Below, piece after piece: positions 1 to 64,000 of a stretch of DNA of 64,000 nucleotides. Made by a program: the position numbers and the translations under genes. Under the pieces are notes generated by a model. The model was given only the letters and a program-made list of their open reading frames with translations, was not told the origin of the DNA and did not search any database. The stretch is from Rhizaria sp. SCN 62-66 (taxonomy: Eukaryota): positions 1 to 64,000 of the forward strand of contig MEDY01000014.1 of the NCBI GenBank assembly GCA_001724265.1. Direction: 5' to 3'. The stretch's first letter is position 1. The number at the start of each line of letters is the position of its first letter.

Positions 1-2160
1 GCGGGCCGCCGCGGCGTCGGCCTTGGCGGCGGCGGCGTCCGCAGCGGCCTCGGTCGCCGCACGCTCGCGGGCCCATTCCTCCTGCGCCTGCGCCAGTCGC
101 GCCGCGGCGTCTGCTGCGGCGGCGCGCGCGGCCGCGGTTTCCGCAGCAGCGGCCTCCGCAGCGGCCTCGGCCTCGGCCGCGGTCTCGGCGTGCGCGCGCG
201 CGCTCTCAGACAGCGCGGCAGCCTAGGCCCGCGCGCGCGCGGCGTCGGCGGCGGCGTCGGACAGCGCGCCCGCGAGCTGCGCCAGCCGCTGCGCGTCACG
301 TTCGGCGCGCGCCTCAGCCTCCGCGGCGGCGGCGGCGCGGGCCTCGTGCGCGGCCTCGTCGGCGACGCTGCGCACGCGCTGCTCCGCCGCTGCGGCAGCT
401 TCCGCAGCGGCCACGGCCGCGCGCTCGAGCGCCTGGCGCTCTTTCTCCTCGCCGACCTGCCGCGCGATGACCAGCGCGGCCTTGGCAGTCGCCAGTTCCG
501 TCTCGGCCGCGCGCGCGCGCGCCTGCGCCTGCGCGACGGCCGCCGTGCCTTCGCGCACTGCGGCCGCGGCCTCAGCGGCAGAGTCGGCGTGGCGGCCCTC
601 GCGCGCGCGCGCCACGGCCAGCGCTTCCTCGGCCGCAGCCAGCTCGCTCTGCAGGCGCGCGGCGTCGCCGGCGCGCGCTTCGGCCGCGGCGAGGCGCGCG
701 GTGGCGTCGGCGCGGCGCGCGCGCTCGTAGTCGACCAGCTCAAGCGCGTGTGCGGCGGCGGCGCGCGCTGTGCTGCTGCTGCCACTACTGTGAGCCGCGT
801 TGCTGTTGTGGATGTCGCCACCAGAGACCGAGCTCGCTGTGCGCTGCGCGGCGGGGGCCAGCGCCGGCGAGCCGTCTCTCACAGTCGCCCTCGGCGGCGC
901 GGCGCTGTTGGCCGTGCCGTTGTTATGCTGTGTTGAAGAGGATGGGTTGCGCTGGTTGTTGACGAGAGCGCGCGCGAGCGCCAGCGCGTCGCTCAGGTGC
1001 GCGTGCATGTGCATGTTCGACGCTACGGCGGCCGCGGCAGTGGCGGCGTTGGCCGCGCTCGCCGCGACAAGCTCCGCGCCAGCGCCGTGGCCGGTCGCGG
1101 CCGCAGTGAGCGCGGTGACGGGGGGAGCGTAAGGCGCCAGTGCAGAGCTCAGCACACCGGAGCTCGGAACGGAGACAGAGCCTGAACGGTCAGCAGCAGT
1201 CGCTGCAGCAGAGCCAGCGCCATTGCCGTTGCTGGCGGCGAGCTGGGCCGCGGCGATGGCGGCGGCAGCAGCGGCCGCGGCCGTGGTCATCGCCTCAGAG
1301 TGACCGTGAGCCGAGTGACCGTGGGCAGGGGGCAGCATGTATGCGTCCGCAGTGTCGATGGCGTAGTCGGCCGCGTGCGTCGACGGGCTCAGTGGACCCA
1401 CGGTCGCCGCGCCAAACGTCAACGGCGGCTGCAAAACACCCTTGTTATTCGCGGGATACTGCTGCTGCTGCTGCTGCTGCGAGACGGCGTGGTGAGAGCC
1501 GTTACCGGGCGCGCGCGCACGGGGCGCGGGGGACAGGTGCGCCAAGCGAGCGGACGCAGCGGTGGCGGCGTGCAGACCGACGCCGGGCGCCACGGGGGCC
1601 GGAAGCGGGTACGCCACAGAGCCTGTACCCGCGCCAACACCCGCAGACGCAGCAGTAGCAGGAGTGGGGAAGGGGATGGCGCCGGGCGGGGCGGGCTCCA
1701 GCAGGAGATCCTGGCGCAGACGCCGCAGCAGCTTGTTGTAGTTGGCGATGTCCGAGTCCAGCGGTGTCGCGCTCGCGCCCGCGGACGAGGTCGTAAAGTA
1801 ACCCGCGCCGGCAGCCGCGTGCGACGGGGCCGCAAACGGGGCCGCGAACGGCGGCTGCGCAGACGGCGCGAAGCCAGGGGTGGCGGGCAGCGCGGCGTCG
1901 TGGATGGGGACGGAGGCCTGCAGACCGGGAGGCAGGCGCAAACCGGACCAGGCGGGCTTGCCGGAGCCGCTGGCCAGAATGCCCGAGCTGGGGTAATGCG
2001 GACGGTCCGTGGAGGAGGCGGCGCGGGCACCGGGGAGGTGTGACGAGGCGCCCATGGAAAGATTCACAGATTGGGTGCTTGTGTCCATGCCAGAGGCGCC
2101 AGCGAGCACGGGCGGGATATTCCCGAAGTCAATCGAACTGTAAAACACGTCGCGGCTCAT
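1..2160 (-). CDS. Uncharacterised protein, low-complexity N-terminus and Ala/Glu/Arg-rich coiled coil; contains in-frame TAG at 223-225; 3' end runs off the window
   Basis: ORF 223..2187(-), first ATG at 2158-2160 (MSRDVFYSS). Past the TAG the same frame stays open for the remaining 74 codons to base 1 with identical coiled-coil character (ARARA*AAALSESARAHAETAAEAEAAAE...LAQAQEEWARER) and no drop in GC. Confidence 0.75.
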
Positions 2161-2551
2161 TTGGTAACGAGTGACAAGCTCGTGCACGAATGCAGATAAG
2201 TTTTGATCCCGAGCGGTCGTCTAAATGTAGATATGACAGAGAGGTAAAGGACGCTTCTGGGAGCACGTAGGCGGATTCAAAATTAAAGAGGTTAGCAAGA
2301 AAAAATTCAAAAAAGAATAATAGAACCTTCATTTTTAGGAGCGGAATTAACACAAATCAAGACCCATTTAATCTAATGACGTTTAACAAGATCAGGGGTG
2401 ACCCGTGAATTCGAGCGTATCATCGAAGGATCCGTTGGCGCGCCAGCGACAGCCGTCGGCCACCGCTCGGTGGTCGCCGAAGGGGGGTGCAGGTTTGGGT
2501 GATTTCATGCAAGTTGCCTGAGTTGAGCGTGATCGTCGAGAACATAGCAGC

Positions 2552-4254
2552 ATGTCTGAGACTCTTCAGAACATCTTTTCTATTCACAGGGTACGTTTAA
2601 TACTGGCTGAACGCTGATCTATCTCATGATATAAGCTTTTATAGCCACTCACATCACAGCCTTCCACGTCATCGCTCCTTTGCCCGTCGTCCTGCAGCCC
2701 GCGGTGACCGTGACCGCGACCTCTGCGTCTGCCGCGCCGGTGACGCTTTCGCATGCGCAGCTTGCTGCGAACACCGACGCCTTTTCGCGCCAGCTGCGCG
2801 CGCTGGGCGTCGCTGTGGGCGAGACTGTGTCGATCCCCATCATCAATAGCGCCGAGTTCATCGTCGCCTTCATCGCCACCACGCTCACGGGCGCGGCCGC
2901 GAACCCGCTCAACCCTGACTACACGGAGGCTGAGTTTACCTTCTACCTTCAGGACACCAAGTCGCGCTTTATGCTCCTCCTCAAAGGCTCCTGCCCGAAC
3001 GCGCGCGCCGCCGCCGCGGCCAACAACGTCGCCGTCATCGAGGTGACCTGGTGCCCTACCACGGGCTCCGTCATCTTCGCCTCTTCTTCCCTGCCCGCGC
3101 CCGCGCCCGCCGCGCTGCCCGCGCCGCCTGCGGACGCCGTCGCGCTGATCCTGCACACGTCCGGCACGACCAACCGCCCCAAGGCCGTGCCTCTGACGCA
3201 CGCGAACCTCATGGCCTCGGTCCGCAACATCGCCGGCACCTACGCGCTGACGCCCGCCGACATCGGCCTGCTCGTCATGCCGCTGTTTCACGTCCACGGT
3301 CTCATGTGCGGACTGCTCGCCCCGCTCTACGTCGGCGGCTCCGTCGTGGTGCAGTATCACAAGTTCTCCGCCAGTCGCTTCTGGACTGACCTGCTCGCGT
3401 ATAAGTGCTCGTGGTTCACCGCCGTGCCCACGATGCACCAGATCCTGCTCTCGGGCGTCGGCAAGCGCGGCCCCGCGGCGCGCGCCGAGCTCCAGTCCGC
3501 TTTGCGCGCACAGGGCCGTCTGCGCTTTGTGCGCTCGTGCTCTTCCGCTCTGGCGCCTGCGACGCTGCGCGCGGTGCACGAGCTGCTGGGGGTGCCCGTG
3601 ATCGAGGCCTACGCCATGACCGAGGCGAGCCACCAGATGACGTCCAACACGCTCACGGTGCAGAAGCCGGGCTCGGTGGGCGTTGGCCACGGCGTCGCTG
3701 TGTCAATCCGCGACGACTCTGGCCGCGCGCTGCCGGCGGAGAGCGAGGGCGAGATCTGTGTCCAGGGCCCCAACGTCACCGCGGGGTACCTCAACAACCC
3801 CAAGGCGAACGCGGAGAGCTTCTTCCCGGGCGGCTGGCTGCGCACGGGCGACCGCGGTCGCGCTGACGCAGATGGGTTTATCTACATCACCGGTCGGCTG
3901 AAAGAGATGATCAACCGCGGCGGCGAGAAGATCATGCCCGGCGAAGTCGACGCCGCGCTGCTTGAGCACCCACTCGTTGCGGAGGCTGTCGTCTTCGCGG
4001 CGCCGCACGCGCTCCTGGGCCAGGTCGTGCACGCCGCTGTCGTGCTCAAGCCCGGCGCGCCTGACGCCACAGGTGACAGCAAGGTGGCGGCGGAGCTCAA
4101 GGGGCAGATCCAGCAGTTTGTGCGCGGAAAGCTCGCCGCGTTTAAGGTGCCTGTGGAGGTCTACTTCGCCAAGTCTGTGCCGCGGACTGCGACGGGTAAG
4201 ATCCAGCGCCGCTTTGTCGCGGAACACTTCCTCAAGCCCCAGGCCAAGCTTTAA
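2552..4254 (+). CDS. Peroxisomal acyl-activating enzyme, oxalate--CoA ligase type (AAE3/PCS60-like); 2 exons (2552-2590, 2698-4254), ~531 aa
   Basis: AMP-binding motif LHTSGTTNRPKAV, PLFHVHGL, EAYAMTEASHQMTSN, GWLRTGD, GRLKEMINRGGEKI, PRTATGKIQRR; C-terminal PTS1 tripeptide AKL; TAA stop. An upstream ATG exon (MSETLQNIFSIHR) joins in frame through GTACGT...CTGCAG. Confidence 0.88.
2591..2697 (+). other. Spliceosomal intron, 107 nt, phase 0
   Basis: GTACGT donor, CTGCAG acceptor, restores the frame from ATG 2552; the nearer AGs at 2644 and 2659 are out of frame. Confidence 0.7.
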
Positions 4255-4756
4255 GCAAAATGGCTTAATCAGTGCACATTTGCGCGAGAGAACGCACTTG
4301 GGACGAACGCGCCAGCAAACACGACTGCGGCGATGCATCGGTTGCGATATGTCGCCGCGTTACAGTCTAACACAAGCTGCATGTGATCTTAGATGATCTA
4401 TGACAGCTCTCTTTTATTATTTCTTCCCTTTGGAACTACCGACACTTCTCACTTTAAAATGCATCCCTGACGGATGTACGTGCATTGCTTTTCAGAGCTA
4501 AAATCACAATGAGAAACAATACACACAATCAATAAATTTCACACACCACACCAGACGTCTTAGATATTAAAATACATGTATTTTTGTTTACGGAGATGCA
4601 CAATTTCAAGATAGTCATTGTGTCACCTGTGACCATATCTAGTTTGAATAAGTTTCCAGATGCGTGCAGAATCAAATCACGGGTACAATATATGTTAAAT
4701 ACTGCTGATTCACGTTTCAGCAGAGAAATTAACGTCTCAGACCTTGGCAGGCACAA

Positions 4757-7700
4757 TTACTTGCTGAGGTCGAGCGTGAGCTCGGGCGCGGCGTTGACGG
4801 CATGCATCTTGAGCAGGTGCGCCATCTGGGCGTCGCGCTTGAGCGCACTGAGCCCGCGCGCGACACGCACCGCGGCGCCGGCCGCAGCCGCCGCAGCATC
4901 AGCCGCACCAGTGTGCCAGAGCACTGCGATGGCCCAGGCGACGACGGCCGCTAGCGCAGGCGCGCGCGAGACGATGCCGATGGCGGCAATAAGCGCCAGC
5001 GCGGCGGCGGCCAGCGCAGTGCGGTCGTCGCCGGCGTCCCACGTCACGAGCGCTCGCGCGCGGTGCAGCGCCGTGGCGGCGCGGCCGCAGCCGACCTGAA
5101 GCGCGGTGAGCAGCGCCGTGCTCTGCGGCGACACTGTGGGGGCGAGCGCGCGCAGACGCGTGGCGTAACCCTCGAGCACGATGTCGCGGTGGTCCGCGGC
5201 GTAGTACGACGCGGAGAGCTGCGCGCGGCTGAGCTCGAAGTGGTCCTCGGCCGCCGAGACGACGATGCCGCACAGAAGCAGCAGCGCAGCGACGGTGATG
5301 AGCAGCCACGGTGCGTACACAGCACCCGCGGCGACGCCGACGAGCACCAGCGCCGACAGACTCGGGTTGCGCCACGCCAGCACCGAGTACACGGCAGCAG
5401 CCACGGTCAGCAGCCCGGAGCACGCGTCGGCGAACCGCGCGACGTTGAACACGAAGACTTCAGGAATGAAGACGTTGGTCGCAGCGACAATGCCACCCGC
5501 GGCGCCCGACTGCGACGCAGCGGCGTCGCCCGCGCCCGCGGAGGCCAGGATCGGCAGCCAGAGCGAGGGCTCGTCCGCGGCGCCGAGGTCGCCCAGCGTG
5601 CCCGCGCCGGTCATCGCGCGCGCGGTCGCAACGGCAGACTGGATGAGCTCCGCATCCGCCGCGGTCTGCGGCCGCGACCAGCCGTCCCACATCAGCCCCG
5701 CGCCCGCCGCGCCGGCACTGCCGGCCGCGGCGCCCGCGGGCGCGACGGCGGCCGAGGCGGCGGCCGAGGCGGCGGCAGCAGCGGCGGCGCGGTTGAAAGC
5801 GCCGGTGACGCCGTTGCGCGCGGCCCACTGCGCGACGGGGTGCGCGCCACCCGTGGCGGCCGCGGCGGCGATGGACGCAGTCGCGGCGTCGTCCGCATTC
5901 GTGGCGGCACCCGGGAGACGCGGCGCCGAGTAGGAGCGCGAGCCGTGCTCGACCTCCCAGAGTGCCCACGCGAGGCGGCTGAGCGCGAGCGTGGACTCGA
6001 CGCACACGAACAGGCCCTTGGGCGCGTCGGCGGCGTCGCCCGCAGCGGCGCTCGCGTCGGTGTGCTGGGACGCGAGGATCTCGTGGCGCAGCACTGCGCG
6101 GTCGACCTCGAGCGGGACGCCAGAGAGTGCGTACCACGCGCGGCGCACGGGCAGCTCGCCAGCGGCGGCGAAGGACTCGGCCGTGAAACCGTCGACCTGC
6201 GCGTCCGCCATGAGCTCGCCCAGCGACAGACGCAGCGCGCCGAGGCGGATCGGCCGTGCGGTCTGCGCAGCGGCGGCGCCGGCAAGGGCGGCGGGCGACA
6301 GCGCGGCCGCAGCGCCAGAGGACGCCGCTGCGGCAGCCGCGGCCGCGGTGGGCTTGGCGTAGACAGTGATGAGGAAACGCGTGTCGGGCGCGGCAATGGG
6401 GCTGCAGAGCCCGCGCGTGGGGGCGCCGGCGGCTGCGGCGGCCGGGGCCGATGCGGCCGGAGCGCGCGCCATGTGCGCAAAGACGGGGCCCGGGGAGGTG
6501 ACGTACTGGTCGTCGAGCGCGACGCCAGCGGGGAAACGTGTGCTTACGGTCATCGTGCAGTACAGCTGATACAGAGGCTCGCCCGCGGTGTCGCCCACCG
6601 CGCCCGCAAGCCCGTTGCCTAGCACGGCGGCGATGGAGCCGCCGAGACGCACGAGGCGCAGCGCGTAGTAACCGAGCGCCGCGGGGTCGAAGTCCTCTCC
6701 GACTGTCGCCACTGTGGTTCCGGCCGCAGCGGGCGTCGGCGCGGGGCGCGCACGCAGAGCGCGGAGTCCGCCCTTCGCCGCGGCACGCGCACGCACAGCG
6801 GCAAGCACGTCCGAGGTGGTGCGCGCGGCGAATGAGCGCAGCGGCGCGTGCCACGCGGCGTCTTCCTCGCCCGTCGCGGGCCAGGAGACCGTGCGCAGAC
6901 CGGGGATCAGATCGCCCGCGCCCGCACCACCGGCACCAGAAGCGCCAGAAGTGCGCGCGAGCACGGTGGCGTACTGCTTGCGCTCGAACGCCACGGCGGC
7001 GCGCACGGCGGCAGGATCCGTGGAGATGAGCTTGCCGATGCGCGCGATGCAGAGCGGCTGCTTGATGTTGGCCGCGTTGACGAGCGAGATGGGCAGCGAG
7101 CCGCAGAGGTCGGAGCCGAGCGCGTAGATGATGTCCGACTGCGGCGGCGCGCCCGCGGGCAGGTCTGTGGCGGGCGAGATGAGCAGCGCCTGCACGTGGA
7201 GAATGCCACGGACGAACTTCTTCCCCACGGGCACGCGCGGGTCGACGTAGTTGGTGAAGTACACGAAGATGGCCTTGTTGGGCAGCAGCTCAGAGCGGCC
7301 CAGCGTGCAGAAGTCGCGGCCGGACACGGGCCACGGCGCCTTGAACCCAGCCGTGGCGATGACCGTGTTAGTGTCGATGCTCTCGACGACGCGACCGGAG
7401 TCGTACGTGTCGTCCCACTTGGGGCGCGTGTTCCCGGCCGCGAACATGCAGCGCACCGTTTCGGGGTCGCCCGGAATGCGGCCGACGCCCTTGGTGTAGT
7501 TGAGCGGTGTCTTGCCGTCGCTGCCGGGCGGGCCCTGCTTCTGGTAGATCTTAATCCCCTCGAGCTCGGTGACAAACTTCCACCCGTCGTCCTCGTTCTG
7601 ATTGGCCGCGCGCCACGCCGCCGCGCGCGCAGTCACCAACAGGGCGTCGTGCTTGCACGGGCCGGTGGGCGCGATCGAGATTGCGTAGTCTTCCTGAGAC

Positions 7701-10700
7701 ACGCCTTCCACAGCGCCCGCGGGTGCAGCGGCACCAGCGCCGGCAGAGGCAGAGCCCGCGGCCGCCGCGGCGGAGGGACGGAACGACTCGAACTTGCGGC
7801 GCTCGAGTGCGACGGCCTCCTGCGCCACGGCGGGGTTGGACGCGATGAGCTTGCCGATCTTCGAGATGCACAGCGGCTGCTTGATGTTGGCGGCGTTGAC
7901 CAATGACTTGGGCAGCGAACCGCAAGGATCAGTGCCGATAGCGTAGATAACATCCGTGGCGTTGGGCTGGCCGTCGACGGGGCGCAGCAGCAGCGAGTTG
8001 TACAGGAGACGGCCGCGCACAAACTTCTTCTGCTTCGGCGCGTCGGGGTGATCCCAGTTACCGCTGTAGACGAAGATGGATCCGTCGGGGCGCACGACGG
8101 AGCGGCCCAGCGAGCAGAAGTCGCGGCTCGACACGGGCCAGGGTGCCGTGAAGTAGGCCCACGAGATGACGGTGTTGGCGTCGACGCGCTCGACCACGCG
8201 GCCGTCGCCGTACATTTCGTCCCACTTCGGCCGCGCTTCGGCAGAGGCGAACATGCACCGCACCGTCTCCGGCGGCGCGGCGATGCGTCCGACGCCCTTT
8301 GTGAAGTTGAGGTCCTGGCCGACAGGGCCCTTCTTCTGGTAGATCTTGATGCCCTCAAGCTCTGTCACGAACTTCCACCCGTCGTCCTCGTTGCGCGTGA
8401 CGGCGCGCCATGCCTCGGCCTCGCAGGCCTCGAGCGCGGCGTCGTATTGCGGCGACGGCGGCAGCGGGTCGACGCTGATGCCGTAATCAGCCTGGCGCAG
8501 ACCACTCGCGCTGGCGCCTGAGCCCGCCGCACCGGAGCCGCCCGCAGCAGCAGCGGCCGCGGCGGCCGAGTCGGCGGCAGCGGCGGCGGCGGCGGCGGCC
8601 TCCTGGAGCGCGGTCTTGAACTTCTCCGCCTCGGTCTCTATCGCAGTGCGCACGGCGGCCGGGTTGGTCGCGATGAGCTTGCTGATCTTGGCCATGCACA
8701 GCGGCTGTTTGATGTTCGCCGCGTTCACCAGCGACTTGGGCAGCGAGCCACACGGGTCAGTGCCGATGGCGTAGACCACGTCGGTTTTGTCGGGCTGGCC
8801 GGGCACGGGCCGCAGCAGCAGCGCAGTGTACAGCAGCACGCCGCGCACGAGCTTCTTCACCGGCGGCGCGTCCGCGTGGTCGAAGTTCGTGCTGTAGACG
8901 AAAATAGCGCCGTCGGGCAGCACCATCGAGCGGCCGATGGCGCAGAAGTCGCGCCCAGCGACGGGCCACGGCGCCTTAAAGTTGGCATACGACACGACGG
9001 TGTTGGCGTCAATGCGCTCGACGACGCGGCCCTCGCCGTACATCTCATCCCACACAGGCCGGATCTCGCCGCACGCAAACACGCAGCGGACCGTCTCCGG
9101 CGAGCCGTTGATGCGGCCCACGCCCTTGGTGAAGTTGAGGTCCTGCCCCGTGGGGCCCTTCTTCTGGAAAATGCGGATGCCTTCCAATTCAGTGACAAAC
9201 TTCCACCCGTCGTCCTCGTTGCGCGTCGCCGCGCGCCACGCCTCGGCGTGCGCGGATTGCAGCGTCACGTCGAACTTGTTCGCAGGCAGCGGCGCCACCG
9301 AGATCGAGTACTTGCTCTGATCCAGTCCAGACGCAGCCGCAGCGTCATCGGGCTTCGCAGCGGAGGCAGCGGCAGCGGCGGCTGAGGGCGAGCCCGCCGC
9401 GACGCTGACCACGCCCTCCACAGCCCCAGCCCCGGCGGCGCCAGTGACCGTCGCGTTGGGCGCGCCGAAACGCGTGATGTTCTCGTTGAACTTGTCCATT
9501 TCAAGCTTCTTGGCCTGCGCCACGGCGGCCGGGTTTGTCGCGATCAGCTTGCCGATCTTGGCCACACACAGCGGCTGCTTGACGTTGACCGCGTTAACGA
9601 GCGAGGGCGGCAGCGATCCGCACGGGTCGGTGCCGATGGCGTAAACCACGTCCGAGAGCTCCGGGGCGCCGGGCACGGGCTTGATCCACGTCGCCGAGAA
9701 GATCACCAGTCCACGCACGACCTTTTTGACCGGTGGCACGGCCGGATGGGTGTAGTTGCCGTAGTACACGAGGATCGAGCCGTCCTTGGGGTCGACGAGC
9801 GTGCGGCCAAGCGAGCAAAAGTCGCGGCTCGCCACGGGCCACGGCGCCTTGAAGCTGGCGTACGACACCACCGTGTTGTGGTCGATTTGCTCCACGACGC
9901 GGCCCTCGCCGTACATCTCGTCCCACTTGCTGCGCGTCTCGCCGCATGCAAACACGCGGCGCACCGTCTCGGGGGAGCCCACGATACGGCCCACGCCCTT
10001 GGTGAGCTTCACGTCCTTGCCCGGCGGGCCCGGCTTCTGGTAGATCTTGATGCCCTCAAGCTCGGTGACAAACTTCCACCCGTCGTCCTCGTTGCGCGTA
10101 ACGGCGCGCCACGAGTCGGCCTCGCTCTGCGCCAGCAGTGCGTCGTAGCGCGACGGCGGCAGCGGGTAGATCGACACCGCGTAGTCAGCCTGGTTCAGAC
10201 TCGTGCAGAACGCAGCGCTGCCGGATGCAGACGCAGCGCCTGCAGCGCCAGCAGAAGCGGGCGCGGAAGCAGAGGCGGGGCGCCGAGTAGTGCCATGTTC
10301 GTCGTCGCCCTCGTCGTCTTGATCATCGTCCTCGTCCTCGTCTTCGTCGTCGTCACTGACTTCGCTGTCGTCGCTCTCCTGCGCGTGACCGTGCCCGCCC
10401 TTGTTCGCGGTGGGCGCTGCGCCAGCACTAGCGGCGTTTGCGGCATTCTTGACGGCGATGTTAGACGCGGCGAGGATGGGAGCGAGAGGAATGCGCGCGA
10501 CACCCTTCTCGCCCAACCTGTCCCACGACCAGCTCTCCTGGCACCGCGCCGGGTCCAGCTGCCCCGGAATCGCGTCCCCGGTCATCGCGCCGCCAGCGGT
10601 GTTGATGTTGGTGTTACCGGCGCCAGTGCTGATGCCCGCGCGCTGTGCCTCGGTCCAGAAGCGCTGCGCCAGCTCGACGTGTGCCATCACACGCTGCTCC

Positions 10701-11428
10701 ACGGCCGCGGCCGCGTCGGGCGCCTCCAGCACGCGGCGAATGCCGGCGATAAGCAGCGGCAGCGTTGGCGCGGACGCGTTGACGAGCGCGGCGGGGATGT
10801 TACCGTTGGGGGAAGAGAGCACGGCGTACGTCAGGCGAGTGAGCGTGCCGTCGCCGAGGGGCGCGAAGAGGAGGCCGCAGTAAGGAATGCTGGAGCGCAC
10901 GTAGCCGTCGCGCGGCTCGGGCACGCAGGGATGGGAGACGGCGGTGGAGAAAACGAAGATGGAGCCGTCAGCACGGGGCTCCCACCGCATCACCACCAGG
11001 GCCTCGCGGTTGGCGATCGGCCAGCCAAGCTTGTAGGCGCTGTAAATCACGTCCGTGCGCTTGTCGACGCGTTGAATGTGGCGACCCTCACTCAGCATCG
11101 GGTCCACGGCCATGCGCAGCGGCAGGCAGTGGTTCGCAGTGAAGTGTGTGATATCGGGCGAGGCCTGGACGATGCCAACACCTTTGGTGCCAACGAACGG
11201 GTCGCCCTCAACTTGCTTGAGAAAGATCTCGACGCCGTCCTTCGTGTCCTTGTATTTCCAGCCGGCGTTGCCGGCTAAAGCTTCGGGCGTCGCGTCGTGC
11301 GAGACGCCGCACGTGACGGCTTCGAGCGCGAGCGGACGCGCCCGCGCCAGAGCGGCCTCCCACGATGCCAGGATCTCGGCGCCCTGCGGCGTCAGCGGCG
11401 TGAATGCAGGGGAAGAAGACTGACTCAT
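4757..11428 (-). CDS. Multi-START-domain lipid-binding/transfer protein (5 START domains, possible C2-like region, C-terminal hydrophobic membrane anchor), ~2223 aa
   Basis: One divergent START domain ([14 protein letters not shown]...WPIANRE...[11 protein letters not shown]) plus four similar copies ([20 protein letters not shown]...KWDEMY..GRVVE.ID...APWPV..RDFC...DPCGSLP.SLVN); hydrophobic segments near the C-terminus; ATG at 11426-11428; TAA stop. Confidence 0.88.
6970..10190 (-). repeat. Four tandem intragenic START-domain repeats, period ~800-870 nt
   Basis: Near-identical DNA block 'aacttccacccgtcgtcctcgtt' recurs near 7575, 8371, 9198 and 10071. Confidence 0.9.
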
Positions 11429-11912
11429 CCCTCTTGGTCTCGGTGTGCAACCACACAACGCAGCGTTGACTGGTAGAAAGCGAGCAGCTCAGACAGAGCG
11501 GGCGGGGGGAAAGAGGCAGAAAAGGTTGTGTTGCAGAAGGGAAGCAGGTCCGTCCGAACACTGAATGACAGATATTCACATAGGGGAGATCGTTGTGAGA
11601 AATGTAGATGATAAGAATAGCCGCGCCACAAAAAATTCTTGTTAGGAATCACTATTGCAATATTGAGAAACGGTTCTACCAAGGCTGACATGTGTGTTTC
11701 TACAAGCACCGAATCGACACGTAGACTAAGCCGTCAGAAACAGAACGGTGCTTCAGGAGCCCAACAAGCAGCTTCGACTCTCATCATCGCGACGTCTTGT
11801 GTATCAGGAATAGCTTTTATCCACATTCTGGTTTTTGCATAGTGTAGCAGCGACTCACATTTATTCTCTTTTTCTCCCTTTTTTCATTCTGACGTTGCAG
11901 TGACCGGTCACC

Positions 11913-29238: not shown

Positions 29239-32200
29239 TTAGAGCCCATTGTTGCTGAGGGCTGAAGAGGCCGACCGCACAACGCGCTCATTGAGCCTTT
29301 GCACGCGACGCGCGTTGCCAAAGACAAGCGACTGGAAAAACTTGATGTCCTCCGCACTGGCAGCAATAGGCGACGCGCCCACAAGCCACGACACAGTTTG
29401 GTTGCACGGCCGCGTTGTCAGCGAGCCATCGTACGCAAAGAAGGCCGGAAACGAAGCACCGAATTGCACGCTGTTCAGCGGCGGTGTGAACGGGTGCTTG
29501 TTTGTGTCAGCGCTGCTACTGCTCAGACTAGGGCTATTACTGTTGTCATTGTTGCTGCTGCGGGCTGCGGCCGCGCTGGCCGCTGCTGCCGCGGCGGAAG
29601 ACGCGCGCGTGCTCACGGTTTGCGCTGTGGCAAACCGGCGCGTGTTGCTGCATGAGGCACTTTCATCATCACTGCACACGGCATTGGCGCCGCCGTTGCC
29701 GGTGAGCGTGTCCACAACGCGCGAGGCAACAGAGGCCAGCGCTGAAAACAACCCTGAAGCAGCGCCAACACCGTCCGTTGACAGGGTGCCGCTGCTGCGG
29801 CCGCGAGAGGTGGTGTTCAACGGGCTTCCGTCAGCGTTAACTTCGTTACCGTTGGCGTCCTCGTAGACCCACTCCCAGTCACTGTCATCACCGGTCCACT
29901 CGCCATTTTCATCATGCCAGTCCGCCTCATTCTCTTCCCAGTCCCTGCCCTCGGCTTCCTCGTGCGCGCGGTGGTCGCCGTCCAACGCCTGCAGCCGCGA
30001 GTTGCGCCACGCGCGCGCGTCATCGACGACGACACGGTTGCTGTCCGCCGCGTGCCCAAACACAGGCAGCAAGCAGGTAGACGCGCTATTGCGACCTTCC
30101 TCGCGGTACGGAAACAAAAGCTCCTTGCTCAGATCAACGTCGTCAAGCGTTGTCGTGGCACGGCCCATGACAACGCTCTCACCGCGAGTGAACTGCGCTG
30201 CGAGCACTGATGTCCCGCGCCAGCGCGCAAGTGGGTCAAAGACCGCGGCGCCCGCGCGCTGCCGTGCCTCTGCTGACACGCGGAAAGGTTCATTCACGAC
30301 GGGCAACGCGGGCGCCGAGAAACGCGGACCGAAAAAGCCCGTGTTGCTGCGCGTGGCCTCTAGCTCGCGCTCGCGAGCTGTCCGGTCATTGCGCAAGTCA
30401 TCGAGTGCGCGCCGGTCCATGCGCCGCTGGATCTCGGCAGCGACATCGGCACGGTGACGCACGCTCTCGGCCTCAATCGCGTTGCGCACAGTAGTCAACA
30501 GCGTCGGCGCGCAACCCTCGCGCTGCTGCACTAAGTAGGCAACGACAGCAAGTGACCGCGCGTTTGCGGGTGGCGGTGGCAGCTGCTGCAGTGCAAGCAC
30601 GTCTGTGTCGCGGTCAACTTCACTTGCACCAACAGCGCTCTGAAACAGGCCCGTGTGCGCCTCAAGCATGCTCTCACCCGCGGCGGCAATTGCGGGTGCA
30701 GCGCTAGTTGCCGCCAACGCCAGCTGCAGCGAGATGCGGTACGGATCCAGAGTGTCAAGGTCCGCAACTGCTTCAGGCTCTACGGCGCGGTTTGCAACGG
30801 GAGCCGCTGGAGTGGGCTGGGGTGTAGTCGTTGCACGCGGTGCGGCGGGAGGCGATGTCTGCGGTAACGCAATCGTAGTTGCAGTGTTAGAAGCTGGTGC
30901 CTCGGGCTGTGTGCTGCGTGGAGGCGTTGACGACGCAGCCGTTGGTTGTGCGGGAGCGGGCACGTTAATAAGCCCACCGCGCGCGATAGGCGTTGCCGTG
31001 GTGGGCTGCGACGCTGTTGCAACCGGCGGCTGCGTTGTAAACGGCTGAGGCGGAGTTAGCGGCGGTTGCGGGCTGAATGTGGGCGGGAGGAACGTTGGCG
31101 TTGGAATTGTTTGCATTGTTTGCTGAACACGCTGCGCATTACCAAGTCGACTGCCGCTGTCTACAGCGTCAGTTGCCACAGCATCTGAGTGCTCAAAGAT
31201 GCCTGAGCGACGCGCAGGAATTAGCGCGTTAGCTCTTGCGATTTCTGATGGAGTCAGCCCACGTGCCTGGCGCTTGAGCGCAGCGTATGCGGGATTGACG
31301 AGGCCGTAGACTGCGTGAATCTCAATCGGGCCGAGCATAAAATCGACTGAGTGTTCGGCGGGCGCGTGGATGTGCACCGACATTAGCTTATACAGTGCGC
31401 CATGCGGCAACGGAGCACCCGAGAGCAGGTTCTGCAGCGGGCGGTCAGGATCTTCAACGGGCGTCAAGGTCACGGTCGTGCTATCGCTGCTAATGGTGAC
31501 CGTCGAGAATGTTCCAAGCTGCTGCGTAAGCGGGTGTGATGTGTTGGCCAACAACAAGTCCACCAGACCTAGTGCTCCCCGGCTACCTGCAAATGGCGGC
31601 GGTGTAGTTTCGGGCTCAGTTGCACGCGTGCTGTTGTTTTCGCTGCCAGTGTTCTCGCGAGTGGTAGGGGCTGCACTTACGCTTGTGCTGCCGCTGGCCG
31701 TGGCGCCCGTGCTTGTGCCGGTGGTGGTGCTCGGGGCGGGTGTTGCTGGACGCACCGCCGCTGTCGGCTGCGCAGCTGACGGCGGCGCTGTTGGACCCGG
31801 CAGTGGCACTGGCGGTGGAATATCAATGATATCTGTTGCGACACGCGTGTTGGCGCCAGTTCGGCTATCACGCGTGGTAACTAGTGCGCGCCGCACCGTA
31901 ACTTCCTCTTCAGCCGCCGCTGCCGCATTCTGTGCTGCTGCTGCTTGCGGCTGCGGGATTGCTGCAGGTGCACTAATTGCTGTTGTACCGCTGGCTGTAG
32001 CGCCGCTCGCCGTAGTGCCGCTTGTTGCAGTGCCGCTGGCTGTTGTACCACCTGCTGTAGTGCCACTTGCTCTAGTGCCGCTGGCTGCAGTGCCGCTGGC
32101 TGAAGTGCCGTTGCTTGTTCCGCTGCGTGCGGGTGCGGCAGCAGGATTGCGGCCTATCACGAGCGCAGTGCCACCAACAGCTGTCGCAGTGCCAGGCGCC

Positions 32201-33801
32201 GCCGTGGAAGGCAGCGGGCCGGGGTTAGTATTTGTGTTTGTGCTTGTGCTGGCGCTGGTGTTGGTGCTGGTAGCGGGTGTGGGACTGTCAACGCGGCGGC
32301 GCCGGCGACGTACGAGAGTTGGCTCCGGCTCTGGTTCAGGCTCCGGCTCCGGTGGCGCAGCCGGGCGCGGGCGCGGTGCAGTGAGCGGTGCTACAGCCGC
32401 GTTGGGCTCAATTACTACGGGACCTGTTGGCGCAGGCGTAGGTGTTGTTGCGGGCGTCGTTGTCGCCGCAGGTCTTGGCGCAGGAGTTGCAGTTGCTGCC
32501 GGTGATGTTGTGGGTGTTGTCGCTGGTGTTGTTGCAGGCGCAGGTCTTGGGGCAGTCGTGGGTGCGGGCGTTGACGCAGCTGTTGGTGCAGGCGTTGAGG
32601 TTGCTGTTCTAGCAGGTGCTATTGCAGCTGGTGTCGTTGGGGTTATTGGTGCCCGCGTCGACGCAGTAGCTGGCGCAGGCGTAGCTACGGAGCTTGCCGC
32701 AGGCGTTGGTGCGCGTGGTGCTGATGTCGATGTTGCGGTATCAATGGGAAGAGAGTTGCTGGGAGTCAGACCAGAGAGGGCAACCGGTGCAGGCACAGCG
32801 CCGATGCCACCGACAGGCAGGCCGCCGACACCAGCATCGTTTGCCGCGGCCGCAATCGCGGCTGTTGATGGCGCTGCAGGCAGGCCTAGTCCGGAGTTTA
32901 TGTTCGTGATGGGAGACGGGAAAGTCTGTGCTGGTGACACTGGCTGAAACACTGATGCGGGTTGCAGCGTAGGTTGCAGCGTTGGTTGAAACGCGGGTTG
33001 AACTGTCGCGCGCACAGGCTGAACCAGCGGCGAAATCTGTGCAGGTCCTGTGTTAGCAATGCCGCCCTGGTTGAGGAAGGCGGGTGGGCTAAACACGCCT
33101 GTTGTGAGTTGTTGTGACTGAACCTGCCCAAAGCCTTGTTGGAAGCCTGGCTGCTGGAAGCCAGGAGTAAAGCCAAACCCAGGCTGACCAAAGAAAAACT
33201 GCTGTGTTGTAAAGCTATGATGTGCAGGGGTTGTGAGCGCAGCAAATGCGGTTTGATCAGTACCCAGTGCCGCAGGGGTGAACGTTGTGGCAGTGAGAGC
33301 AGGTTCGTCGATGGGCAACGGAAGTACGAGGGGAGATGAGACGAGACGGGGTGTAAAGTCGCGCGAGTGAGGAGGAATCGTTCCAGGCTCACTCTCACCC
33401 GCCGGGGTGGCTACAGAAAGACGCGGAACACTGAAGACTGTCAGACTTCGACGCGAAGGTGAGTGCGAGTTCGTGGTGAAAAGACGAGAGCGCACTGCTG
33501 ACGTATCGATGTTGATCGGCGACTGGCGTGTTCCATCGCACTGGTCTTCTTCATCTACGGAGCTTGACAACGCAAATGCAGAACGAGTTTGGAGCGTTGA
33601 CACTGCGTGATCAGAAGGTGATAGTGTCATTGTACTTTGGCTGTGATGCCAGTGCGCGCTCGACAGCGATTTCTTTGACTTGAGCTTCGAGACGGATGAA
33701 ACGATTGAGTGATGTGTGCCATGATAGGGACATGCCAGAACAATTGCGCTAAGACATAGCGCAAGTGTTGTTAGAATCGCGCAGTTAAAACGTGATATCA
33801 T
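29239..33801 (-). CDS. Secreted alpha-carbonic anhydrase with the catalytic domain split by mucin-like and acidic inserts, 1520 aa
   Basis: Signal peptide, then C-DGTRQSPINID (~33505-33543), YKLMSVHIHAPAEHSV...PIEIHAVY (~31310-31390), SLAVVAYL (~30532-30556), FFAYDGSLTTRPCNQTVSW and GNARRVQRLNERVV (~29278-29442), in the canonical alpha-CA order; TAA stop. Confidence 0.88.
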   Translation of the reverse strand: MISRFNCAILTTLALCLSAIVLACPYHGTHHSIVSSVSKLKSKKSLSSAHWHHSQSTMTLSPSDHAVSTLQTRSAFALSSSVDEEDQCDGTRQSPINIDTSAVRSRLFTTNSHSPSRRSLTVFSVPRLSVATPAGESEPGTIPPHSRDFTPRLVSSPLVLPLPIDEPALTATTFTPAALGTDQTAFAALTTPAHHSFTTQQFFFGQPGFGFTPGFQQPGFQQGFGQVQSQQLTTGVFSPPAFLNQGGIANTGPAQISPLVQPVRATVQPAFQPTLQPTLQPASVFQPVSPAQTFPSPITNINSGLGLPAAPSTAAIAAAANDAGVGGLPVGGIGAVPAPVALSGLTPSNSLPIDTATSTSAPRAPTPAASSVATPAPATASTRAPITPTTPAAIAPARTATSTPAPTAASTPAPTTAPRPAPATTPATTPTTSPAATATPAPRPAATTTPATTPTPAPTGPVVIEPNAAVAPLTAPRPRPAAPPEPEPEPEPEPTLVRRRRRRVDSPTPATSTNTSASTSTNTNTNPGPLPSTAAPGTATAVGGTALVIGRNPAAAPARSGTSNGTSASGTAASGTRASGTTAGGTTASGTATSGTTASGATASGTTAISAPAAIPQPQAAAAQNAAAAAEEEVTVRRALVTTRDSRTGANTRVATDIIDIPPPVPLPGPTAPPSAAQPTAAVRPATPAPSTTTGTSTGATASGSTSVSAAPTTRENTGSENNSTRATEPETTPPPFAGSRGALGLVDLLLANTSHPLTQQLGTFSTVTISSDSTTVTLTPVEDPDRPLQNLLSGAPLPHGALYKLMSVHIHAPAEHSVDFMLGPIEIHAVYGLVNPAYAALKRQARGLTPSEIARANALIPARRSGIFEHSDAVATDAVDSGSRLGNAQRVQQTMQTIPTPTFLPPTFSPQPPLTPPQPFTTQPPVATASQPTTATPIARGGLINVPAPAQPTAASSTPPRSTQPEAPASNTATTIALPQTSPPAAPRATTTPQPTPAAPVANRAVEPEAVADLDTLDPYRISLQLALAATSAAPAIAAAGESMLEAHTGLFQSAVGASEVDRDTDVLALQQLPPPPANARSLAVVAYLVQQREGCAPTLLTTVRNAIEAESVRHRADVAAEIQRRMDRRALDDLRNDRTARERELEATRSNTGFFGPRFSAPALPVVNEPFRVSAEARQRAGAAVFDPLARWRGTSVLAAQFTRGESVVMGRATTTLDDVDLSKELLFPYREEGRNSASTCLLPVFGHAADSNRVVVDDARAWRNSRLQALDGDHRAHEEAEGRDWEENEADWHDENGEWTGDDSDWEWVYEDANGNEVNADGSPLNTTSRGRSSGTLSTDGVGAASGLFSALASVASRVVDTLTGNGGANAVCSDDESASCSNTRRFATAQTVSTRASSAAAAAASAAAARSSNNDNSNSPSLSSSSADTNKHPFTPPLNSVQFGASFPAFFAYDGSLTTRPCNQTVSWLVGASPIAASAEDIKFFQSLVFGNARRVQRLNERVVRSASSALSNNGL

Positions 33802-34380
33802 GACTGGGCACTTTGCGAACAGACCGCTAGGGCCGCAATTATCTCAATTCTGTTCAAGTAGTCTCTGTTCAAGTTACTGTTTTTAATCCAATGTCTGCTT
33901 GATGAGAAATCAGTGATACAAGAGTAAATAATAGATATTTAGTTTCAATATACAATTTCATATAGTTACACGAGTGAAACTAATATGTTTAATGACATTA
34001 CACGACGACCATGTGCTGAGCAGAAGATTTTGGTTTGTGACCCTCTGAGGTTTGTTGCCGTACATTGATTGCTGTGGCAGGCCAAAGAAGCTTTGAGATA
34101 TCCGAAAATGTGGCTTCTTCTTTGCATACTTTATATTACGCTGAAATAAAGCTCAATAACGAAACTATTGTGCTATATGAGACTTAATTGTGAGCTGCTG
34201 GCAACTTAAAGTATTTTTAAGTCAACAAGATACCAACGCAAATTAAAGATAAATATCACTAGGACTAAATTTACATATGTATTGACTAAGTTATGATGCG
34301 TATTCATTTAATTGAGTTTAATTCGATCACTGTAGCCCGATAATTTCGTTCACACAGTCATTTGGAATTTACGTACAATC

Positions 34381-60214: not shown

Positions 60215-63200
60215 TCAGTCGAGCGCCTGCAACACTTCTTGGAGTACCATGAACGCGGCCTCAGCCTCAGCGCTTTGCTGCCACGGCAAGTGCGTCGTCT
60301 TATCGGGGTGCAACGGCACCGAGATCTTAAGCAGATGCTTGCGCACAACGCGCGCGCTGCTCAAATCGCCGTAGTCGCGTCCGCGCTCCCCGAAGATGCC
60401 CAGCACCTGCGCGGGCGTCTTGCTCGCCACGCGCGCCTTGAGCCGCCGGTAATGTTGGTCCAGTAGCGCCCCGCGCGAGGCCGGGTCGTCCTGCAAACCG
60501 CCGGCCCTGGCGGCGGCCACGCGGGCAGACGCGCGCGCACCGCCGTTCGCATTTGACCCAGCGTTGGCACTTGCACTCGCATTCGAGCTCGCATTCGAGT
60601 TGGCCCTGGCGCGGGCCTGGGCCTGCGCTTGTGCCTCCGCGTGCGCCCTCGCGGTGGCCCGGGCCTTAGCCTCAGCCTCCGCTTGCGCGCGCGCACGCTG
60701 CGCCTGCACGTGCGCCTGCGCTTGTGCCTGCGCCTGCTGTGCACGCACACGCGCCGCGGCCGCTGCCATCGCTTCCGCCTCTTGCGCACGCGCGCGCTCG
60801 AGCGCGCGTTCACGTTCGAGCGCGCGTTCACGCTCACGGCGCTCGCGCAGCTCACGATCCTGCTCCTCCGCGACCCGCTGCTGCGCTGCCCGCAACGCCG
60901 CCTCCGTCGCGGCCGCGGTCGCCGCCGCCGCAGCAGCAGCAGCGCTGTCGCCGCCGCCGTTCGCGCCCATGAAAGAGAAGCCGCGCACGAGCGCGGGGGC
61001 GGACGTGGCCGTGCCGCCGGCCTGACGCAGTGCGTCGCGCTGCCGGGCCAGTGCCGCCGCCAGTTGCGGCTGCGGCGCGGACGTGTGCGGCGTCGCGCCC
61101 TTGGCCACGCGCGCGCGCGAGGACATGCCGTGCGTGTACGCATGCGCGTACGCTTGCGACGGGGACTGCGGCTCGAAGGAGCGCTCGTCGCTCGCAGCGT
61201 TGTCATCGTAGCTGTATCCTGCGCTGCTCTGATGGATGTCGCCGTGGCCGTGGCCGTTGGCGTCATCGGTGTCATAATCACGGTCTTCGTAGGCCTGGCT
61301 GTGCGCGGAAGCAGAGGCGACGGCTGCGGCAGCGGACTCTGCGGCGGCGGCAGCAGCGGCGGCCGCGCTTGAGGCTGCGGCCTGCGCGGCGGCAAGAGCA
61401 CGGCCTTCCTCAGTCTCATACTGGTGACTGTGATCAACCGAGTGATCGTGAGCAGCGGGGTGGACGGAGTGGGCGGCGCTGAGGTAGGGGTGACCGTGCT
61501 CGTCGCTCTGCTGATACTGCTCGTGTCCTTGGTGCTGAACGTACTCGGCGTACACTCCCCCGTGGCCGTGACCATGGCCGTGAGCGTGGCAGTGCTAGCT
61601 GTGCACATACTGCCCGTGCGCATACTGCGCGTGGTAGTGCGCACTGCTGTTCTCATCGAGCCCGCCCCCCGCGCCGTGCTTCTCGACCGCGTCGCGCTCG
61701 TCGTCGTCGTCGTCATCGTCGTCGCCATGGTCGTGACTGTGCGCAACGCGCCGCGCCACGCGCAGCATGTGCTCGCGCACCGCCTCCATGCCCTGCTTGC
61801 TGCCCGCACGCGTCGCGCGCGCGCGCTCGCCCGCGCGCTCCCGAGCCAGCGCCTGCGCCCGCGCGCGCGCACCAGCGCCCACTGCGCCAGCAGCAGCGGC
61901 CGCGGCTCCGGGGAGCTTGTCTTTGATCTCGCCCGCCGTGCGCCGCACCGTCGGTAGACGCGCACGCCCTGCCAGCGCGGCTGCGGCCGCAGCGGCAGCC
62001 GACTGCGCCTTCATCGCATCGCGGAACCACGCGGCCTCGCTACGGAGACCTGAGCTCGCGCCGTCTGTATTGTCGCCGTGCAGTTGCGCGTTGTTGGTGT
62101 GCGACGCGAGTGAGGCCGCGACACTGCGCAGCCGCCGCAGGCCGCCAGCCGCAGCAGCCTGCGCTTCGGCCTCCGCGAGCGCGGCCGCGGCTGCAGCGGC
62201 GACGGCGCGAACACGGGCTTCCGCCTCGGCCTCCGCGGCCGCCACCGCCACGCTCCGTCGGCTCGCGCGGCGGCCGCCGGGGACCGTCGCGCTGCCCAGC
62301 AGCTTGGCGGCCGCGGCGGCCGAGGCAGACAGCGTGCGCGCGGAGGCGGGGCCGCCGGGTGTGCGGCGGCGGGCCGCGGTGCTGCTGAGGCCGGAGACGA
62401 GATCGCCCTCGTGACTCTCGGCGTCGCTGTCGTAGACAGGAACGGCTGTGCCCAGCTCAACAGTGACGTTCGCGCCATCAGCGTCGACGTCGTCGGAGTC
62501 GCCGTCGTGACTATCAGCGTCCCGCTTGCTAACGCCGCGCTTGCTACCCTGCACTAAAGTGGCAGTAGTGTTTGCGGCAGAGCCGGTCGACTGACGGCCC
62601 CTGCCGCGGCCCACCGGCATCGCCGCAGACGCAGCCTCGCTCGCAACAGCGGCGGGGCTGGGCCCGCTGGCACTGGCGCGGGCCCGGCGACGCACTGCGG
62701 GGATAGACTTGTTGTTGCGATCGCTAATAACCGCAACGTCGCTGTCGCTGCTTTCGCGGTGCTCGTGGTCGCGCTTCGAAGCAGCTGCAGTGCCCCGACG
62801 TGTCGCAGCGCCAGTCGCCGTCGCAGTCGCCGTCGCCGCCGCCACAGATGCAGGCGTGGGGGTGGGGGAGCGCGGGCGGCGCGCGCGGGACGTGGTGGCT
62901 GGCACGGCCGCGCGCGATTTCACACCCGCGCCGGTGCTGGTGCGGCGCGCTGCCGTGTCCGCCACGGGAGCCCGTAACTGACCGTGGGCGGCAGCGGCGG
63001 GAACGCGTGCCGCAGGTGCCGGGGTGTCCATCATGGGAATCGACTGGCCCCGCATAAGCGTGTTGACGCCGAGTGAGCTCGAGCCGTGCGCGCCGTGGCT
63101 GCCGCTATAGTGGTCATAGTCGCGGTCATTGTCGACGTCGTCGCCGTCGTCGACGTCGCCTTCGTTAACAGTGGTAGCCGGCGTGCTGTTGTTGTTGTTG

Positions 63201-64000
63201 TTGTTGTTGTGGCCAGCGCTGACTGCACTTGGAGCAGCGAGCGTAGTGGCGCTAGAGCTAATGCGCTTGCGCCCACGTGCAGCAGCCGCAGTCCCCTTGT
63301 TAGCGCCGCCCGCGGTCTTGGCGGTCGTCGCGGCAACGTACGGGGTCGCTGTCATCGCCGCGCCGCCGCCGGAGTGGCCGTGAGCCGCCGAGTGACCGTG
63401 AGCAGCGGCGACAGAGAGGTGGTCCCCGTCGCCATGTAAGTACCCGCCGTCGCTGTGTGCGCCGTTCCCCATCGCCGGCGTGGCCGCAGTGACTGTGAGC
63501 ACGGGCGCGCGCCCCGGTGTCGCGACACCAGCACTGTCGCTGCCGCTATTAGCGCTGACGTTTGTGGCGGTTGTGGTGCGACGGCGGCGGCGTGCAAGGC
63601 CGAGACCGAGCTTTGTCTTGCTCACTGTCATCACGGCCTCAGACTCCGCCTCATCAGCCGCCGCCGCAGCAGCAGCAGTGCTGGACTCGTCGACGCCAGC
63701 GCCACCTCGACTCGCGCGCTGGGGATTGCTCCCAGTCGCGCCCGCGGACGGTGGCCGAGCCACCACGGCGGCGGCCGCTGCAGCGGTAACGGCGGCGGCG
63801 GACGCGGCGGCAGCGGCCGAGAACGATGACGGCAGCGCAAAGAGCGGGTTCGGCGTCGAAGCCAGCCCCGCGCCGCCAGCGCCCGGGGTCGCGCCGCCGA
63901 TGCTGCTCCTCGCGCCGCCCCTGTCCGCAGTCGCCGCGGCACCACTACCACTGCCACTGCCGGCCCCTGCGTTGGCGCCGTTGTTGTTGGCGAGGCTGAC
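60215..64000 (-). CDS. Large low-complexity protein with C-terminal J-domain-like module; in-frame TAG at 61595-61597; 5' end outside the window
   Basis: The frame is open from base 64000 to the TAG. ORF-track entries 61595..63766 and 60215..61555 are in the same frame and separated only by *HCHAHGHGHGHGG. C-terminus AQVLGI...VRKHLLKISVPLHPDK...AEAEAAFMVLQE; TGA stop then AT-rich DNA. Confidence 0.8.

Follow-up and report, generated by a model that had tools for sequence, protein, structure and literature searches.

UAG is very probably a rare glutamate codon in this genome, read by a tRNA-Glu(CUA), with UAA and UGA kept as stops. A gene on the minus strand of the window (the whole 64,000 nucleotide stretch analysed, taken from the start of contig C14 in an assembly of 34.9 Mb and 714 contigs) would under this code be translated across an in-frame TAG into one protein of 1765 residues with a degenerate J domain. 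The initial annotation treated this TAG as a local event; it appears instead to be one instance of a codon reassignment that is genome-wide.

The in-frame TAG of the J-domain gene

Within the window, the gene has the following features:

60215 to 64000, minus strand: in-window part of exon 2, encoding an Ala/Ser/His-rich low-complexity protein with a C-terminal degenerate J domain
61595 to 61597, minus strand: in-frame TAG, codon 1306 of the 1765-codon gene, predicted to encode Glu; the same in the contigs of runs X3 and X4
60221 to 60358, minus strand: degenerate J-domain segment, downstream of the TAG and bearing HPD (Pfam DnaJ, E=0.004)
60215 to 60217, minus strand: TGA stop, then AT-rich sequence (29% GC)

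The 1765 codons lie in two exons, the upstream one of which is past the window edge (C14 65648-64970, the gene thus extending to C14:65648), and the sole intron is 136 nt, GT-AG, and 41% GC. From position 64927 to the TGA at 60215-60217 the single stop in frame is the TAG at 61595-61597, and the peptide quoted in the initial annotation is found on either side of it. The next ATG downstream is 157 codons on, which bears out the earlier statement that there is none for more than 150 codons. There is likewise no AT-rich spacer at the TAG, as had been noted, the 100 nt before it being 69% GC and the 100 nt after it 64% GC. In the 100 nt past 12 gene-end stops in the window GC ranges from 29 to 73%, and is at or below 56% in 11 of the 12; the exons are GC-rich, and introns and spacers are AT-richer. 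The initial proposal of one long protein, with the TAG read as an amino acid, is supported over a split gene.

The description of a His/Gln/Tyr-rich tract over the TAG stands for its His-rich part, with His at 15% of the 60 residues before the TAG and 27% of the 60 after, but not for its Gln-rich part, where the shares are 3% and 10%, with 3% in the protein as a whole. Similarly, the HPD-containing domain reported downstream does have its HPDK, but the J domain is degenerate, reaching 17.6 bits against the curated cut-off of 27.8 for Pfam DnaJ (PF00226). Among the three matches listed from the ESM Atlas is a cluster with 13% DnaJ members. The 1765-residue product may be an Hsp70 co-chaperone. 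Elsewhere in the gene, at window position 61240, a short repeat is longer by 6 bases, in frame, in both X4 and X5, which is a strain-level length variant.

The TAG at 61595-61597 is real and is not a base-call error. The contig from run X3, which is possibly the source of the assembled DNA itself, has 0 differences across the whole 3201 nt stretch, and the contig from run X4, which belongs to another study (2025, depth 3.4), covers 61527-61876 and also has 0 differences. Reads supporting CAG had been suggested as a check on the TAG, and both contigs show TAG. The runs that cover most of the stretch are described in their records as metagenomes from bioreactors and wastewater. None of the pieces listed for X5 and for the RNA run X11 bridges the TAG, and such absence of cover is not evidence.

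Were the standard code in use, the TAG would need a local cause, whether a sequencing error, a nonsense mutation, an unrecognised intron, or readthrough confined to this gene, and the chance of this is very slight. There are two GTATG donor-like sites 13–28 nt upstream of the TAG that could pair in frame with a downstream AG, random nonsense changes would mostly be TAG, and no listed RNA piece crosses the site. The candidate introns that would remove the TAG are, however, 62–68% GC against the 41% of the real intron, and the base is identical in the second study (X4). TAG is also carried by eRF1 and other conserved genes where no intron is possible, there is a cognate tRNA, and no clean gene end has TAG, all of which are set out below. 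The standard-code reading is already largely refuted.

Distribution of TAG in the genome

The 49 long frames in 574 kb of sequence, taken from five contigs, contain 21 TAG in 106,681 codons, alongside 3651 GAG and 2905 CAG. UAG is very rare, at ~0.5% of Glu codons; of 113 long coding segments, 12 have it. Besides the TAG of the J-domain gene, the window has one more:

223 to 225, minus strand: the window's other in-frame TAG, within a gene rich in Ala and Glu; the coding score is high on both sides

This TAG is the same phenomenon as that at 61595 and fits the same code.

When stops with coding-like sequence on both flanks were sought in the 574 kb, with all three stops treated alike, 10 of 452 TAG passed at a threshold of 6, as did 1 of 1019 TGA and 0 of 183 TAA. 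Passes for TAG, TGA, and TAA numbered 14, 2, and 0 at a threshold of 4, and 9, 1, and 0 at a threshold of 8. The stops that fall in protein family hits across the whole genome were assigned by eye, with 12 of the 35 TAGs inspected judged exonic, 22 intronic or at a splice acceptor, and 1 unclear, while all 29 of the TAA and TGA inspected were judged intronic, none being found exonic in the conserved domains. The TAGs of kinesin, DEAD, and myosin hits are splice acceptors and were discounted as sense codons; searches of the ABC, AAA, WD40, and dynein DHC_N2 families found no TAG inside the hits.

Of the 150 coding-segment ends in the 574 kb (1.6% of the genome), 62 have no donor-like motif, and these clean ends are 21 TAA, 41 TGA, and 0 TAG, with a filter that also drops some true TAA ends. 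There are 8 segment ends at which a TAG comes first, 4 of them plainly intronic by sequence; four such ends that were examined closely are intronic in two cases, a further in-frame TAG in one, and probably an antisense frame in the last.

Among the genes with an exonic TAG are the sole eRF1 gene found, a methionyl-tRNA synthetase, Suv3, UBE2J1, and FAP21, which are unlikely to be dispensable. Under the codon usage of this genome, nonsense changes arising at random would be expected to give TAG ~70% of the time, and against that expectation 22 TAG versus 1 TGA has p ~0.003. The stop counts therefore have to be read together with the evidence from the tRNA, gene ends, and essential genes, and the stronger support for reassignment comes from the 0 TAG at gene ends and the TAG in the sole eRF1 and other conserved genes, together with the tRNA.

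So low a usage suggests that UAG is a young codon, or that its decoding is slow or contested. It might be that UAG is ambiguous, with an amber suppressor tRNA-Glu set against an eRF1 that still partly terminates there, giving both truncated and full-length protein. This is improbable, since a working stop would not be expected at 0 of 62 clean gene ends and essential genes tolerate the TAG, but there is something in its favour in that 12 of 113 long coding segments have UAG here, as against 78–91% of genes in phyllopharyngean ciliates (PMC11687900), that one copy of the tRNA(CUA) was found, and that the T32S change in eRF1 is conservative. The difference between this and UAG as a Glu codon is one of degree, which DNA alone cannot separate.

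A cluster of TAGs was seen at L129 (G000:C42:20001-30000), where there are at least four in frame on the plus strand in ~3 kb (24538, ~25170, 27051, and 27276). Their density is far above the genome average, and the cluster adjoins a ubiquitin C-terminal hydrolase domain.

A tRNA gene with a CUA anticodon

A pattern search identified a tRNA gene with the anticodon CTA at G000:C84:76008-76080, which scores 58 bits with the Rfam tRNA model. It has no CCA and has poly-T downstream, and the contig on which it lies also bears kinase and kinesin genes of eukaryotic type. A search of the genome gave no further copy. The 'Pyl' label given by ARAGORN comes from the anticodon alone and was rejected, Rfam making it a plain tRNA.

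Among the tRNAs of the genome that were read, the closest match is to tRNA-Glu, with 47/73 positions identical to tRNA-Glu(CTC) in an ungapped comparison and 46/73 to tRNA-Glu(TTC), and with 36/73 to both of the tRNA-Gln; the figure for tRNA-His is 46, with gaps. The two tRNA-Glu are themselves only 49/73 alike, which would make tRNA(CUA) a paralogue of long standing with its structure intact, as opposed to a recent anticodon mutant. Its first five acceptor pairs are common to both tRNA-Glu and its T stem is common to tRNA-Glu(CTC). The anticodon stem is weak, with a G-U and three A-U pairs, and the variable loop is short.

The tRNA(CUA) has U11-A24, U13-G22/A46, no base 47, and A37, which are determinants for GluRS in Escherichia coli, where U34 and C36 also are Glu determinants (PMC9976931). 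The CUA anticodon is without U34 and C36, and the list of determinants is bacterial, the host being a eukaryote. Judged from its sequence, the candidate tRNA would be charged with Glu. There was no tRNA with a UUA anticodon among those of the 70 loci read, with 63 of 506 candidates scored.

Changes in eRF1

In comparison to 117 homologues, eRF1 has four changes found in none of them (T32S, G57S, L124M, and K130Q) and two, T58K and M34V, each found in 1 of 117, which is the relative P0004. In the motifs that read the stop codon, GTS has become GSS, and G57S and T58K are just before ASNIKS. The eRF1 of P0004, the closest relative at 84% identity, keeps GTS and G57, which makes T32S and G57S the better candidates for the change of code; P0004 may be a sister lineage from before that change.

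T32 bonds the G at the third position of the stop codon (PMC5681627; PMC5304391), and T32A is lethal in yeast (PMC4381064). In Iotanema, where UAG alone is recoded, the same Thr is changed, there as T32G (PMC5304391). According to the text of Fig. S2 in PMC5304391, K at position 58 is present also in ciliates where UAG still terminates, and M34V is common to Guttulinopsis and apparently to Giardia, with columns that may be shifted in the PDF. T32S would be expected to weaken the reading of UAG.

Together, these features would fit a mechanism in which GluRS charges the CUA tRNA, the affinity of the altered eRF1 for UAG is mostly gone, letting the tRNA win, and the CUA anticodon would be unable to read UAA, leaving that codon as a stop. 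Glu would then be inserted at codon 1306, giving a single protein of 1765 residues that ends in the degenerate J domain.

The eRF1 gene has an in-frame TAG of its own:

L106 4464-4466, equal to G000:C63:103463-103465, minus strand: in-frame TAG at codon 111 of eRF1, in a conserved Glu column

The metagenome contig L193 carries a copy identical to the genomic eRF1, TAG included; metagenome contigs searched for eRF1 relatives yielded 32 loci, none of them at 70–99% identity. Bacterial RF2 is autoregulated by an in-frame stop in its own gene. By analogy, it is conceivable, if rather unlikely, that this is an early UAG=Glu code of low usage in which eRF1 still partly contests UAG and the TAG in its gene is a feedback sensor, such that an excess of eRF1 would truncate its own synthesis and a scarcity would allow readthrough by tRNA-Glu(CUA). 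A gene of ~440 codons would have a TAG ~8% of the time by chance at the genome-wide rate, and the TAG in eRF1 is therefore only suggestive of autoregulation.

Identity of the amino acid at UAG

The initial annotation favoured Gln at the TAG, weakly, which is not supported, as the context is barely Gln-rich, the CUA tRNA is Glu-like, and the best conserved of the TAG columns are Glu. The column in eRF1 is E in 106 homologues, D in 10, and V in 1, with Q in 0 of 117, and it is not absolute, since there is Val in P0004 and Gln in the metagenome locus L198. At the kinase hinge, aligned by motif, the TAG column is E in 121 of 147 representatives (Q in 2 of 147) and in 22 of the 28 kinases of this genome. 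In the case of FAP21/EFHB, E is present in all 5 of the alignments listed, these being the best 5 of 8 hits, and Q in 0/5.

Other columns are less uniform. UBE2J1 has D67/N25/S11/H10/E3/G2 in 120 sequences with no Q, Suv3 has D in the human protein and S in 6f4a with no Gln, and SNF2 is mixed (E, V, V, A, and A). For the NEK-like, MetRS, and TKL sites, alignment to PDB entries paired them with remote proteins or ones outside the family, with Ala in STK10 and Ser in the pseudokinase KSR2. The Pfam bits summed over 11 sites are E 777.8, K 774.1, Q 773.6, S 770.4, Y 762.1, L 759.7, and W 758.2, with 7 residues scored and the other 13 not, and with a margin for E over Q and K of ~4 bits. Leu, Tyr, and Trp are excluded at UAG. 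A UAG=Leu code was rejected since Leu is 18 bits below Glu over the 11 sites and the tRNA(CUA) has a short variable loop in place of a long arm, and a UAR=Glu code was rejected as TAA is a common terminator with none found exonic.

The alternative that UAG is Gln, a code of the NCBI table 15 type that Iotanema spirale and two phyllopharyngean ciliates use, would have GlnRS charge the CUA tRNA through U35, which is improbable, though marginally less so than an ambiguous UAG. Among 17 relatives of the CaMK-like kinase (C16) with at least 50% identity, the TAG column is Q in 6, K in 4, V in 2, E in 1, and something else in four; one TAG sits within a poly-Gln tract; CAG to TAG is a single transition; and amber tRNAs are mischarged with Gln in E. 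coli (PMC9976931). Against this, the body of the tRNA(CUA) is of the Glu type and has low identity to either tRNA-Gln, and Q is absent or nearly so from the eRF1, kinase hinge, FAP21, and UBE2J1 columns. Glu is preferred because it ranks first in the most conserved columns, in accord with the tRNA. With UAG as Glu, the TAGs at Gln-like, weakly constrained sites would fit CAG-to-TAG transitions that were tolerated as changes from Gln to Glu.

The organism and other features of the sequence

The genome is that of a flagellate: FAP21 is present, as are 11 candidates for dynein heavy chains. Its closest relatives are metagenomic, these being P0004 by eRF1 and P0391 by HSP90 (88%), and comparison with the eRF1 residues in Fig. 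S2 of PMC5304391 gives a weak hint of rhizarian affinity. The SSU rRNA gene is highly divergent, with several large insertions (L116 ~1502-5950, G000:C706). The first of these insertions has a 176-amino-acid ORF with a His-Cys-rich motif, which we take to resemble a homing endonuclease. A pattern search for polyubiquitin junctions gave no match.

There are two further long frames in the window, both on the minus strand. That at 4757-11488 is open for 2243 codons and has five START-domain stretches, while that at 29239-33843 is open for 1534 codons, with a carbonic anhydrase fragment confined to the C-terminal end.

Comparison with known nuclear codes

The first two nuclear codes in which UAG alone is reassigned were those of the rhizarian exLh (Leu) and Iotanema spirale (Gln) (PMC5304391), with further cases described in phyllopharyngean ciliates (Leu and Gln), Protocruzia tuzeti (Gln), and Scotinosphaera (Ser) (PMC11687900). 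As here, UAG is a sense codon in these and UAA and UGA are stops, and the phyllopharyngean ciliates also have a CUA suppressor tRNA in two assemblies (PMC11687900). These codes give Leu, Gln, or Ser, whereas here the residue would be Glu, and the genes here are GC-rich with UAG in a small share of the long segments, unlike the ciliates, where most genes have it (PMC11687900).

Glu at UAG is known from codes that also change UAA. In Oligohymenophorea sp. PL0344, UAG is Glu by way of a tRNA(CUA) nearest to tRNA-Glu, as here, but UAA is Lys and only UGA stops, whereas UAA is a common stop in this genome; PL0344 is described as having ten CUA tRNA genes with 69–93% identity to tRNA-Glu, in comparison to the one found here at 64% (PMC10553269). 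Peritrich ciliates and Blastocrithidia, too, are described as having Glu at UAG through a tRNA-Glu(CUA), but in both UAA and UAG are Glu (PMC11687900, PMC12153298), and here no exonic TAA or TGA was confirmed. The change in Blastocrithidia has been tied to AT pressure (PMC12153298), whereas coding GC is ~65–75% here. No nuclear code with UAG as Glu and UAA as a stop was found in the literature searched, which was mostly open papers, such that an earlier mention is possible. UAG=Glu with UAA kept as a stop is most likely a new variant of the nuclear code.

Annotation with the standard code would split or truncate about 1 in 10 of the long genes here, on the basis of the 113 long coding segments sampled. 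The natural eRF1 changes T32S, G57S, and T58K may remove recognition of UAG and keep that of UAA and UGA, a combination that is wanted for amber code expansion in eukaryotes. If the reassignment is true, this would be another independent origin among the few nuclear codes that separate UAG from UAA, and the GC-rich genes, the still rare UAG, and the candidate tRNA and eRF1 changes would allow the codon-capture and ambiguous-intermediate models to be tested directly in this organism.
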